Both the position numbers and the translations under genes were made by a program. From Armatimonadota bacterium (lineage in GTDB: Bacteria; Vulcanimicrobiota; JACPDS01; JBDRKI01): a stretch of DNA of 11,938 nucleotides. Shown here piece after piece: positions 3,154 to 8,363 of this stretch. How positions within the stretch are numbered: position 1 is the first letter of the stretch; each line of letters starts with the position of its first letter. The DNA lies in assembly GCA_043814095.1 (NCBI GenBank), contig JBDRKI010000088.1, forward strand, positions 1 through 11,938, written 5' to 3'. The notes below the pieces were generated by a model. That model was not told where the DNA came from. It ran no database searches and was given only the letters and a program-made list of their open reading frames with translations.

Positions 3154-4806
<1,653 letters not shown>

Positions 4807-4812
4807 CTAAAA

Positions 4813-5127
4813 TTATTTTGTAATTATGCCGAAAAGTTCGTTTTCTCTTACGATAAGATAATCTTCGCCGTTAAGTTTTATCTCGGTGCCGGAGTATTTT
4901 CCGTAAAGAACGGTATCGCCTGTTTTAACTTCCATAGGAACTTTCTGACCGTTTTCCAGGATTTTTCCGGTGCCTACGGCTACAATTTTACCTTCCTGGG
5001 GTTTTTCTTTCACGCTGTCGGGAAGTATTACTCCCCCTCTTGTTACTTCTTCTGTTGGCAGAGGTTTTATAACTACTCTGTCACCCAGGGGTTTCAACTG
5101 GACATTTTTTTCTGTTTTTGTTGCCAT
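4813..5127 (-). CDS. groS: Co-chaperonin GroES (Cpn10)
   Basis: 104 aa with LKPLGDRVV, the mobile loop [21 protein letters not shown] and [17 protein letters not shown] is present; the gene lies directly upstream of groEL. Confidence 0.99.
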
Positions 5128-5184: not shown

Positions 5185-5211
5185 TTAGCACTCTCGTCCG
5201 CAGAGTGCTAA
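5185..5211. promoter_or_regulatory. CIRCE element (HrcA operator)
   Basis: Exact consensus TTAGCACTC-N9(tcgtccgca)-GAGTGCTAA, located between the groES promoter and start codon. Confidence 0.98.
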
Positions 5212-5290: not shown

Positions 5291-5331
5291 TGTTAACAAA
5301 ATGTTAACAAATTATTAACAAATTGTTAACA
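5291..5331. promoter_or_regulatory. Four phased T(G/A)TTAACA boxes at 11-bp period; probable OmpR/PhoB-family (Pho-box-like) operator
   Basis: TGTTAACA at 5291, 5302 and 5324 and TATTAACA at 5313. This is TTAACA x4 with 5-nt spacers, immediately upstream of the predicted plus-strand promoter. Confidence 0.7.
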
Positions 5332-5333
5332 TC

Positions 5334-5362
5334 TTAAAATCAATTTAAGGATAAAATATAAT
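5334..5362 (+). promoter_or_regulatory. Probable sigma70-type promoter of the caspase operon (weak -35, perfect -10)
   Basis: TTAAAA (5334-5339), 17 nt, TATAAT (5357-5362). SD GGAGG at 5400-5404 precedes ATG 5409. Confidence 0.5.
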
Positions 5363-5408: not shown

Positions 5409-8363
5409 ATGACCCATATAACTTCGACCGCAAATATTAATTTTTCGGAACAACAGCCGGCTTTAAATAAAACTCCGGATGCTAAATATATTTCAAGCAT
5501 TGTGGATGAGAAAGCCAAAGAAGGCCCTGTTTTCATAATTGTTGCCGGTATTAATAAATATGATCCGGCTGTTTACGGACCGCCGGAAGATGTAAGCTTA
5601 AATTACTGTGTTAATGACGCAAACAGTTATGACAAGTATTTCAGCGACAGAAAAAAGACAAGCAAACACTGGAAAAATGTAAGGGTTCTTAAATTAACGG
5701 ATGATCAAGCCACAACCGAGAACCTGAAAAAATTATTTAAGGCGGCGGGAGCCAAGAACCCGAGTCTTGTCATGTTTATAAACTCAAGCCACGGCACAAA
5801 TGACGGGACAAGACCCTATTTATGCATGCATGACAGGCCTTACAGTATGGACGAATTGACGCTGGACAGGAACAGGTATTTCGCGGACTCCCAGTTTATA
5901 TCAATACTGGATTCCTGCTACAGCGGCGGGTTTGCCGCGCCTAAAGACGCGGGTCCGGAGGTAAAATCAAGATTCTGGGAATGGAAAGATAAATCAACAG
6001 CCGCTTTTAACGCGGAGAAATTTGTAAAGAATGACAAACTTATACATAAAGGCGATATAGTTATCGCATCATGCAAATTTAACCAGACCAGCATAGAGCT
6101 TCCTTTCTTTCTGGATTTAAAAAAAATGCCTGATAGGAAAAACGGGCACGGACTGTTTTCTGGAAGTTTTTTAAAGGCCGGCCATAATCCAAAATGGGTA
6201 GATAGAGGGTACGGCAATGATGACGGCACTGCGTCCTTTGAAGAAAACTTTGAAGCGGCCCGGCATTATATGCAGGTAATACTGAACACTTTATTTCCTG
6301 ACGGCGGGTTTAAGCAGGATCCTCAGATGCTTGATTCGGATCTTAGTAAAGAGCAGCCCCTTATAGATGTTAAGGAAATAAAAGGGGGCGGGATTCTTAA
6401 TCCTAAGGAATCTAATATAAAAGTGAAACCAAGCAATGTTCTGACAGTTGAGCATAAAGATACACCTTCTTTAAAAGATACCCGTTTTAATTTTCCGGTA
6501 TTAGAACAGACATCCGGCATAAGCACAGTTAAGGAAGATCAATCTTTAAAACATGGCCGTAAATTTGTTCTTGTTATAGGCATAGATGATTACATATATA
6601 ATGTGCCGGATCTCTCATGCTGTGAGAATGACGCAAACGGGATAGTTCAGTGTCTCGGGGACAAATGGGAAGGCGCTGCTGTCACGAGGCTTTTAAGCAG
6701 AAACGCGACAAAAGCCAATATAATGAACTGGTTTGTTTCGTTAAAAGATCAGCTTAAAGCTAATGATCAGGTGTTCATTGCGTATTCCGGCCACGGCACA
6801 AATGACGGGTATAACGGATATTTATGTCCCGCCGACACAAAATCAAACAGCATAAGTTCTCTTATAAGCGGTGATGAGCTTGCCGAGTGGAGAACATGGC
6901 TCGGTCCCGCGGTTGTCTCATATACGATTGACTCATGCTTCTCGGGAAAGATCCCGGAAGATTTTGACAATGTGAAGAAACCCGGTGATTATAAAGTACC
7001 TTCTAATGTAAGGTATCTTCCTATGGAGTTTACCAAATCTAATTTCAACCAGGATTATTTTTACGCGAAACTGCTGTGGAACGCGACAGGCGGATATAGA
7101 AGTTCCGCTCCTACCATTATACTGACGGCTTCAAGCGCCGATCAGTACAGCCAGGAGGACCCTAATCTTAGAGTGGAAGGCCTGCCTTACAGAGGTTACG
7201 GCGCGTTTATGGGCTGGCTCATGAAGGGGCTCGGTGTAGGTGATGCGACCGGATATGCCGATAAAAACCAGGATAAAAATATATCAATGGCTGATGAAGC
7301 ATATAAATGGACATATGAAGCGGTGTCGCAGAAATACAGGGACCAGAATCCCAACGTATTTTATTCCGGCGCTTACGGCGGAGACTGGTATAACTGGTAT
7401 ATAAAAGGGACGGATCCCGATGAGAAGCTAGATTCCACAGGATGGATAAAAGATGCGGGCGTAGGTTCGCCTGCGGTAACTGATACGGCAAAAACCGGGA
7501 AGATAGAAGATAAACCTAAAACCACAGAAGAAGGTAATGTTTTTGTTCTTTCCATAGGTGTTAACAGATATGATTCGTTAAAATATCTCCAGCAGTACGG
7601 GACAATACCCAGCACCTTAAAATATTGTGTTAATGACGCAAGAGGTGTTGCCGGCAAATTCCAGGGCAAGCTGAGTCCTCCGGAAAATATTGCGCTTCTT
7701 GAGGACAATCAGGCCACATGGGCTAATGTTCAGGCTCAGGTTGCGGCCATAAAGCAAAATATGCGTCCCGAGGATAAACTTGTAATATACAGTTCAAGCC
7801 ACGGCACGAATGACGGCAAAGACGGTTATATCTGCCTGTATGACAGGATGGTCAGCGGAACAGAACTCGGAATTTTAAGCGATATAGCGGGGGTTGATAA
7901 TCAAGTAGCCTTTATATTCGACTCCTGCCAGAACGGGGCTTTGATAGGCAAAGGCGCGGACGAGAAAACCGTTATCGGCGAAGGCGCTAAATATTTTAAA
8001 TGGGAAAAGTCAAAAGATAATTTTGTTCAAGCACAGGAGCTTCTTGTAAAGGGGTTGATAAAACCCAATATATTTGTGTTTACATCCTGCAAGGGGGATC
8101 AGTACAGTTCTGAAAGCCCGAGGCTTGAGCACGGATTATTCACCTACGCGCTGCTTCAGGGAATGGATGAGAAGAACTATCTTGATTATATGAAAGACGG
8201 CGATATATCCATGGAAGACCTTGTCAGGTACGCGTCATGGAGGACATATCTTTTAAGCTTAAAGCCGGATTTGCACTCCCAGAATGTCATGCAGTACCCG
8301 CAGAACCCCCAGTATCTGGATAATGATAAAGAAAAAGAATTTGTAGTGAAGGATTTAAAGTAA
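5409..8363 (+). CDS. Triple caspase-family (peptidase C14, metacaspase-like) domain protein
   Basis: Three ~280-aa repeats, each with GIxxY/GVxxY, LxxCxNDA, S(S/G)HGTNDG, DSC, (A/T)S...Q-x-S-x-E, G-x-F and QxP. Catalytic dyads are H128/C170, H462/C510 and H798/C840. No signal peptide or TM segment is visible. Confidence 0.93.
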   Translation: MTHITSTANINFSEQQPALNKTPDAKYISSIVDEKAKEGPVFIIVAGINKYDPAVYGPPEDVSLNYCVNDANSYDKYFSDRKKTSKHWKNVRVLKLTDDQATTENLKKLFKAAGAKNPSLVMFINSSHGTNDGTRPYLCMHDRPYSMDELTLDRNRYFADSQFISILDSCYSGGFAAPKDAGPEVKSRFWEWKDKSTAAFNAEKFVKNDKLIHKGDIVIASCKFNQTSIELPFFLDLKKMPDRKNGHGLFSGSFLKAGHNPKWVDRGYGNDDGTASFEENFEAARHYMQVILNTLFPDGGFKQDPQMLDSDLSKEQPLIDVKEIKGGGILNPKESNIKVKPSNVLTVEHKDTPSLKDTRFNFPVLEQTSGISTVKEDQSLKHGRKFVLVIGIDDYIYNVPDLSCCENDANGIVQCLGDKWEGAAVTRLLSRNATKANIMNWFVSLKDQLKANDQVFIAYSGHGTNDGYNGYLCPADTKSNSISSLISGDELAEWRTWLGPAVVSYTIDSCFSGKIPEDFDNVKKPGDYKVPSNVRYLPMEFTKSNFNQDYFYAKLLWNATGGYRSSAPTIILTASSADQYSQEDPNLRVEGLPYRGYGAFMGWLMKGLGVGDATGYADKNQDKNISMADEAYKWTYEAVSQKYRDQNPNVFYSGAYGGDWYNWYIKGTDPDEKLDSTGWIKDAGVGSPAVTDTAKTGKIEDKPKTTEEGNVFVLSIGVNRYDSLKYLQQYGTIPSTLKYCVNDARGVAGKFQGKLSPPENIALLEDNQATWANVQAQVAAIKQNMRPEDKLVIYSSSHGTNDGKDGYICLYDRMVSGTELGILSDIAGVDNQVAFIFDSCQNGALIGKGADEKTVIGEGAKYFKWEKSKDNFVQAQELLVKGLIKPNIFVFTSCKGDQYSSESPRLEHGLFTYALLQGMDEKNYLDYMKDGDISMEDLVRYASWRTYLLSLKPDLHSQNVMQYPQNPQYLDNDKEKEFVVKDLK

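Follow-up and report, generated by a model that had tools for sequence, protein, structure and literature searches.

We found that the 11,938-nucleotide stretch analyzed here (the window), which is the entire contig C88 of a 2.5-Mb Armatimonadota draft genome (129 contigs; 99% complete by marker genes), carries a gene for a protein, P0001, in which three caspase-like domains of the peptidase family C14 follow one another in one chain. P0001 is a real single cytoplasmic protein of three complete C14 units and probably works as a multi-headed zymogen; judging from their residues, all three heads would be able to catalyze cleavage, with Arg or Lys at P1.

Three C14 domains in one open reading frame

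Pfam recognized Peptidase_C14 (PF00656) in three stretches of P0001 within one open frame (E 2.1e-38; 132.8 bits against a family cut-off of 21.4), which agrees with the initial annotation of one polypeptide with three tandem metacaspase-like domains. The span first given for it, 5526 to 8360, does hold the three domains (D1, D2, and D3), but 5526 is the first strand of D1 and the gene begins at 5409, where the start codon is preceded by a GGAGG Shine-Dalgarno sequence. The motifs read earlier were all found at the same codons by a script scan: HGTNDG occurs three times (His codons at 5790, 6792, and 7800), as do DSC (Cys codons at 5916, 6936, and 7926) and CxNDA (at 5607, 6621, and 7626). The period of about 335 residues corresponds to His-to-His spacings of 334 and 336 residues (1002 and 1008 nucleotides). 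The linkers, described as hydrophilic and containing Lys at about residues 320-383 and 665-709, are hydrophilic and fit the domain envelopes (residues 35-325, 379-656, and 704-984); their enrichment in Lys and Arg proved to be only slight. Neither a signal peptide nor a hydrophobic segment was found in P0001, and its 19-residue hydropathy peaks at 1.04.

An artefact of assembly or gene calling, by which repeats were collapsed or misjoined or separate genes were fused, is scarcely credible. The contig has only 11,938 bases and comes from a draft of 129 contigs, but the frame is open throughout 5409..8363 and the copies are pairwise only 24-34% identical as proteins (D2 is 28% and D3 34% identical to D1), as expected of old duplicates. 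The longest DNA repeat within the gene has 54 nucleotides at 65-76% identity, around the His motif, and because the repeats are so short and diverged the assembler is unlikely to have confused them. The same three domains in the same order are present in an independent metagenomic protein of 946 residues, P0004, which is 53% identical over 98% of the query. Misassembly, raised as an objection when the domains were first noticed, is contradicted by all of these observations.

Catalytic and pocket residues

A catalytic dyad is present in each domain (His128/Cys170, His462/Cys510, and His798/Cys840). The S1 pocket proposed for TbMCA2 (metacaspase 2 of T. brucei) consists of Cys92, Asp95, Ser156, and Asp211 (as given in PMC4357240), and D1, D2, and D3 all contain the four equivalents, in CxND, S-x-H, and D-S-C. 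In the alignment with AtMC4 (Arabidopsis metacaspase 4), the pocket position, the Asp, Ser-Gly-His, and Asp-Ser-Cys line up with LRGCVND, SGHGT, and DSCHSG; by this alignment, all three domains have the pocket of the metacaspase/orthocaspase type (C14B). The acidic S1 pocket of the initial annotation is thus borne out by both comparisons. According to PMC5756287, the characterized C14 members other than caspases cut after Arg or Lys because of their acidic pocket, and replacement of the pocket Cys in AtMC9 lowered activity by 90%. The same specificity would be expected of the heads of P0001.

Each domain also contains a p10-like half, since the matches extend up to positions 258-261 of the 261 of the profile and the fold match covers the whole of GSU0716. 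Its motif is SCKFNQTSIE in D1, SSADQYSQED in D2, and SCKGDQYSSE in D3, with Glu as the acid residue. These motifs resemble SGCxxDQTSAD, and the corresponding AtMC9 stretch is aligned to the family profile.

About 18-25 residues past each catalytic Cys there is a basic residue followed by Phe or Tyr (Arg188, Arg535, and Lys861). Of the 16 C14 domains encoded in the genome, 13 retain this [KR][FYT] column, as do all domains of the orthologues, and the loop that precedes the [KR][FY] site has low confidence in the structure model of D2-D3. The three residues are candidate P1 sites of autoprocessing.

Most C14 domains of this genome have an EF-hand-like loop, D-x-N/D-x-D/N-G-x-I-x-x-x-E, in their p10-like half. 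As a pattern match, it raises the possibility of calcium control of these proteins, a feature of type I metacaspases.

Fold of the domains

A profile of 15 domains of the P0001 family was searched against solved structures. It matched 11 distinct sequences, which comprise the metacaspases AtMC4 (E 2e-23), AtMC9, yeast Yca1, and TbMCA2 (E 2e-23 to 8e-11) and GSU0716; no animal caspase was among these matches. A single-sequence search with D3 gave no match to solved structures, whereas the profile search did.

D2-D3 was modelled with AlphaFold2 from a 25-row alignment of two-domain relatives. The model has two well-folded domains, with a mean predicted local distance difference test (pLDDT) of 81.4 and a predicted template modelling score (pTM) of 0.59; confidence is low in the inter-domain linker (model residues 293-323, pLDDT about 29) and in the loops after the catalytic Cys. 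Foldseek retrieved GSU0716 as the best match to the model (E 6.6e-13; template modelling (TM) score 0.65 by target), together with AtMC4, AtMC9, MALT1, and caspases. The full-length AlphaFold2 model, made from a five-sequence alignment, had a mean pLDDT of 51.6 and was unusable for domain packing. On the predicted structure, each unit is thus a complete protease domain of metacaspase/orthocaspase type, with a p20 and a p10-like half.

Conservation and domain history

A search of 5.8 billion clusters gave only four close relatives of P0001, and the next match had E 1.9e-10. Besides P0004, with its three domains, these were P0005, P0006, and P0007, which have D2 and D3 only, behind unrelated N-termini. 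A decayed D1 was sought in these N-termini, but they showed no C14 similarity (E 0.14 or worse). As far as these sequences tell, the family is conserved around D2-D3 as its core. Across all five of its proteins, D2 and D3 show no change at the dyad and pocket positions, and the same holds for D1 in the two proteins that have it. Between P0001 and P0004, the identity is 54% in D1, 62% in D2, and 65% in D3; it is 25% and 29% in the linkers (residues 319-383 and 663-708). D2 and D3 each have an invariant Lys directly ahead of their first strand (Lys385 and Lys704; 5/5 orthologues). We infer that all three heads are under selection for catalysis, because extra C14 copies elsewhere have lost the residues that are kept here; D1 is the weakest case for retained catalysis.

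A maximum-likelihood tree was built from 26 domain rows, one of which is to be ignored, being a weak and spurious second hit within P0002, the operon's fourth C14 protein. The cytoplasmic domains grouped together (support 97/97), D1 branched with the D3 clade as its sister (98/91) while D2 lay outside both, and P0002 fell outside D1, D2, and D3. The lipoprotein paralogues of the genome formed a separate part of the tree, in which tandem domains paired within proteins (C37, C75_52089, C28 d1/d2); domains have thus been duplicated repeatedly in this genome.

About 20 nucleotides around the His motif are identical in D1 and D2 (5786-5807 and 6788-6809) despite 28% protein identity. This patch could result from codon constraint or from a small gene conversion.

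Closer to the host, no orthologue of P0001 was found in 40 relatives, in which the best match was 37% identical over one domain. A scan of 150 other genomes of the phylum for PF00656 at E <=1e-5, of limited sensitivity since it missed D1 of P0001, gave a match in 41 genomes, and among the matches listed no two shared one open frame. The family alignment was also used to scan a contig collection to which the genome studied here possibly does not belong; it gave 26 pattern matches, with no relative among them.

Occurrence of multi-domain C14 proteins

By our own profile, the genome encodes nine C14 proteins with 16 domains; two of the proteins have three domains, three have two, and four have one. 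Seven of the nine, on C9, C28, C36, C37, and C75 (1, 3, 2, 2, 1, 2, and 1 domains), are lipoproteins in which poly-Gly comes after the lipobox; unlike them, the two C14 proteins of the window lack a signal peptide. The pocket Cys is present in exactly three of the 16 domains, which are those of P0001. In the triple lipoprotein of C28, Tyr and Asn replace His in two domains and Cys is lost in one, so that one dyad of three is kept. Having lost the catalytic His, the protein on C9 is pseudo-orthocaspase-like, and so are d1 and d2 of the C28 protein.

In 1.84 billion representatives, a single-domain profile had 119,711 matches at E <=0.001. The top 150 representatives and the P0001 family, 152 proteins together, were analyzed; multi-domain proteins top such a list because scores are summed, so the sample is biased to high summed scores and is no census. 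One of these proteins had no p20 match, 82 had one, 52 had two, and 17 had three. All three dyads were kept in five triples (P0001, P0004, P0089, P0090, and P0123). The other 12 lacked at least one dyad, and 11 of them kept only one; an unrelated TPR-containing family of about 1200 residues mostly had one live dyad of three. Pfam gave three PF00656 stretches in each of the five unrelated triples scanned (P0089, P0090, P0123, P0135, and P0143).

With a second triple and three doubles in the same genome, and 17 triples in the sample of which five are fully dyad-intact, the rarity at first ascribed to this architecture was overstated. The architecture is rare, though P0001 is not alone in it, and the protein is an uncommon form within an established protease family. 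In the literature, "a few" multi-p20 "ambiguous" proteins are mentioned and left unclassified (Klemencic et al., 2019, in the main text of PMC6426788), and up to three metacaspase genes per operon are reported (Asplund-Samuelsson et al., 2012, according to PMC3501461). A full-text search of main texts turned up no work on an active C14 protein of three domains, although the supplements of PMC6426788 might list some; as far as this search shows, the other triples named here have not been studied either.

Operon and upstream region

Two genes follow that of P0001 on the same strand, for a HEAT/ARM-repeat protein (P0003) and for P0002 (Table 1). P0002 starts 21 nucleotides past P0003, each of the three genes has a Shine-Dalgarno sequence, and no terminator-like site was found between them on the + strand. 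No hydrophobic segment was found in P0001, P0003, or P0002. The contig ends 136 nucleotides past the operon. PADLOC returned only its generic "caspase" model (5.3e-25) and weak HEAT-ARM hits (1.5e-5).

P0002 has kept the His and Asp-Ser-Cys, and its pocket Cys is replaced by Ala. Its C-terminal region of about 275 residues has a weak similarity to the last third of the C14 profile (5.5e-9 in P0192), so by sequence P0002 may be a decayed two-domain C14 protein; an ESM Atlas search with this part gave no usable lead (top score 0.76, TM <=0.36). P0192, with 44% identity, is the one orthologue of P0002. In the 5.8 billion clusters, P0003 had no close orthologue (best 24% identity), though both of its operon partners have relatives.

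Upstream and on the opposite strand, groES-groEL (3154-5127) is divergent from the operon, with further housekeeping genes in these 5.4 kb. At the locus of the two-domain orthologue P0007, the upstream gene is metK, and downstream lie a 23S-IVP gene, a TPR kinase gene, and priA. Adjacency to groESL as a family trait is not supported by this locus, where metK takes that place. A perfect CIRCE operator (TTAGCACTC-N9-GAGTGCTAA) was seen at 5185-5211, between groES and a 12/12 sigma-70-like promoter (5249-5222, - strand); it is ordinary HrcA-type heat-shock control of groESL. Farther off, a FecR-domain protein of 405 residues (845-2062, - strand) has a weak likeness to Leptospira LipL45 and Lsa33 (43 bits, far under the cut-offs).

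The gene of P0001 is preceded by an array of phased TGTTAACA boxes (Table 1). In the whole genome there are 42 arrays of at least three such boxes, and 42/42 are intergenic; the boxes are palindromic and come in threes or fours. Arrays precede the C14 lipoprotein genes on C9, C28, and C36 as well, which brings the C14 transcription units with an array to four. Of 37 other open reading frames (ORFs) next to arrays, 28 had no Pfam family and nine had a match; proteins of the flagellar rod and hook are among the nine, as is a FliK-like one that scored below its cut-off. From their distribution, the arrays look like a large regulon of one DNA-binding protein, and the triple C14 operon is presumed to be tied to the same presumed regulator as the other genes with arrays.

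Table 1. Position of the features described in the window (all on the + strand; aa, amino acid residues)
Feature	Position	Strand	Description
Four TGTTAACA boxes phased 11 bp	5293..5331	+	TTAACA at 5293, 5304, 5315, 5326; between groES and the P0001 gene; candidate operator array
Promoter-like TTAAAA-17-TATAAT	5334..5362	+	Consensus scan 10/12; pattern match only
Triple C14 gene (P0001)	5409..8363	+	984 aa; no internal stop (ORF listing)
Domain D1	5514..6383	+	About aa 35-325; Cys67/Asp70 pocket, His128, Asp168, Cys170; profile positions 2-258/261; residue pattern CDHDC
Arg188 (D1)	5970..5972	+	Conserved basic residue + Phe/Tyr after the catalytic-Cys loop; candidate autoprocessing P1 site
Linker 1	6384..6545	+	aa 326-379; hydrophilic, poorly conserved; pLDDT <50 in full-length model
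Domain D2	6546..7388	+	About aa 379-660; Cys405/Asp408, His462, Asp508, Cys510; pLDDT mostly >85
Arg535 (D2)	7011-7013	+	Equivalent of Arg188; candidate autoprocessing P1 site
EF-hand-like loop of P0001	7260-7295	+	aa 618-629; pattern match
Linker 2	7389..7523	+	aa 661-705; pLDDT about 29 over aa 672-702; Lys704 invariant
Domain D3	7524..8360	+	About aa 704-984; Cys740/Asp743, His798, Asp838, Cys840
Lys861 (D3)	7989-7991	+	Equivalent of Arg188; candidate autoprocessing P1 site
HEAT/ARM-repeat protein P0003	8380..10041	+	553 aa; PF13646 HEAT_2, E 3.8e-24; AAGGAG before ATG; 16 nucleotides after the P0001 stop
Fourth C14 protein P0002	10063..11802	+	579 aa; PF00656, E 7e-15; EF-hand_1 below cut-off
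EF-hand-like loop of P0002	11560-11595	+	aa 500-511; free-standing, in C-terminal region

Proposed mechanism and alternatives

The multi-headed zymogen that we favor would work as follows. Each head would be activated by a cut in the loop after its catalytic Cys, as in metacaspases and in MaOC1, an orthocaspase; MaOC1 activation requires a cut after the p20, as described in PMC5756287. The cuts would fall at the conserved basic residues Arg188, Arg535, and Lys861. Tethering would raise the local concentration of the heads, so that one fired head could cut the others in cis or in trans. The HEAT protein P0003 is probably a scaffold, an adaptor, or an inhibitor, and the gene of P0001 would be expressed as the first of a three-gene operon, behind an array of the kind that also precedes three genes of exported C14 lipoproteins.

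Several observations weigh against this proposal. D1 is the least conserved domain (54%), its branch is long (1.69), and no model gave its p10-like half with confidence; it may thus do a different job. The p10-like motif of D2 has Ser where D1 and D3 have Cys. Dyad integrity alone is no proof of activity, a caveat of the review itself (PMC5756287). The conserved [KR][FY] lies within a short predicted strand and could therefore be structural rather than a cleavage site. The linkers show a slight enrichment in Lys and Arg (fraction 0.15, against 0.09-0.13 inside the domains). A conserved operon was considered and rejected, since the P0007 locus has different neighbors and the HEAT protein has no close orthologue.

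It is unlikely, but deserves consideration, that P0001 is instead a true polyprotein, whose own Arg/Lys-specific heads cut the linkers and free three single-domain proteases. Heads expected to cut after basic residues would find low-confidence, hydrophilic linkers that contain Lys, and the invariance of Lys385 and Lys704 before the first strands of D2 and D3 (5/5) fits such cuts. Save for these two single residues, however, the linker sequence is unconserved, and its Lys and Arg content is barely above that of the domains. A basic residue ahead of the first strand is, moreover, a general feature of the metacaspase family and need not be a cleavage site. We also see a small chance that one or two of the heads do all the cutting and that the rest, D1 most likely, are substrate-binding or regulatory despite their intact dyads, as dead copies are in other tandem C14 proteins. 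Among the 17 three-p20 proteins, 12 lack one dyad or more and 11 of the 12 are left with one, as is the C28 triple of the same genome, and D1 is long-branched, less conserved, and missing from three of the five family members. Yet no orthologue has lost a dyad or pocket residue from any of its domains, and the pocket Cys persists in P0001 though the other 13 C14 domains of the genome are without it.

Very unlikely is a covalently pre-assembled oligomer, which the initial annotation offered next to the self-processing polyprotein and in which the domains would pack like the protomers of active caspase or paracaspase dimers and the packing would create the activity. The D2-D3 pair, as the conserved core of the family, is consistent with this. 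On the other side, metacaspases do not dimerize for activation (as stated in PMC5756287), the best sequence and fold matches are of the metacaspase type, and the D2-D3 model (pTM 0.59, linker pLDDT about 29) gives no confident mutual orientation of the two domains.

The multi-headed zymogen could also be extended to a self-contained cascade, which we regard as quite improbable. Its diverged live heads would pass one triggering cut from head to head and amplify it into a burst of Arg/Lys-specific proteolysis; the EF-hand-like loops could place the trigger under calcium control, or P0003 and P0002 could set it, and one regulator of the TGTTAACA boxes would induce the exported C14 lipoproteins at the same time. 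If this were true, the cascade would be a scaffold-free bacterial counterpart of the proximity-induced activation of initiator and executioner caspases.

Comparison with known systems

P0001 overturns nothing that is known and is not a new kind of system. Bacterial relatives of caspases are abundant, and P0001 bears on the question of what holds them inactive and what turns them on. It is a natural test case of whether tethering can replace the dimerization or the calcium switch used elsewhere in the family and, beside decayed relatives in one genome, of why some duplicated heads live while most die.

Three known classes were considered and rejected for P0001. Animal-type caspases (C14A) dimerize and have a basic Arg/Gln pocket that makes them Asp-specific, whereas the pocket of P0001 is acidic, and caspases appear as fold matches only. 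For the EACC1-associated caspase NF047832, P0001 scored 63.5 bits against a cut-off of 140. In pseudo-orthocaspases the catalytic His and Cys are replaced by Tyr and Ser (as defined in PMC6426788), and all three dyads of P0001 are intact.

Among the other triples, which belong to different families, P0123 (1044 residues) also has three tandem domains with all dyads; unlike P0001, it has ankyrin repeats and no pocket Cys. P0089 and P0090 (about 3000 residues) have three live dyads too, but their domains are about 1000 residues apart with FN3 between them. Dead copies distinguish from P0001 both P0135 and P0143, of the TPR family, with their three PF00656 stretches, and P0079 and the C28 lipoprotein, which have three p20 matches in our profile scan. 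Solenoid repeats (Ank, TPR) are fused to the C14 domains in other triples, whereas the HEAT protein is a separate neighbor of P0001. The "ambiguous" proteins of Klemencic et al. (2019; PMC6426788) share with P0001, by their description there, several p20 domains in one protein. Vertebrate caspase-16 (PMC12198278) likewise shows a tandem duplication of the caspase fold in one protein; it has two domains, belongs to the animal Asp-directed lineage, and has an origin unrelated to P0001.

The metacaspases AtMC4 (6w8s) and AtMC9 (9n3d, 8a53) of Arabidopsis, Yca1 of yeast (4f6o), and TbMCA2 (4af8) match P0001 in sequence and fold, with the pocket Cys and Asp, Ser-Gly-His, and Asp-Ser-Cys aligned. 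All of them are single-domain proteins, whereas P0001 is a triple, without a prodomain and without the long type II linker. GSU0716 of Geobacter sulfurreducens (PDB 3bij), a structural-genomics protein, is the best fold match, and its profile hit spans both domain halves; it has one domain to the three of P0001. MaOC1 of Microcystis aeruginosa PCC 7806 is, as of PMC5756287, the one prokaryotic C14 protease studied biochemically. Likened to P0001 by its description in that paper and not by sequence, it is also a prokaryotic C14 protein with a His-Cys dyad and a full acidic pocket that includes the pocket Cys. A basic P1 and self-cleavage would be expected to be common to both, MaOC1 having a single domain and P0001 three in one chain.

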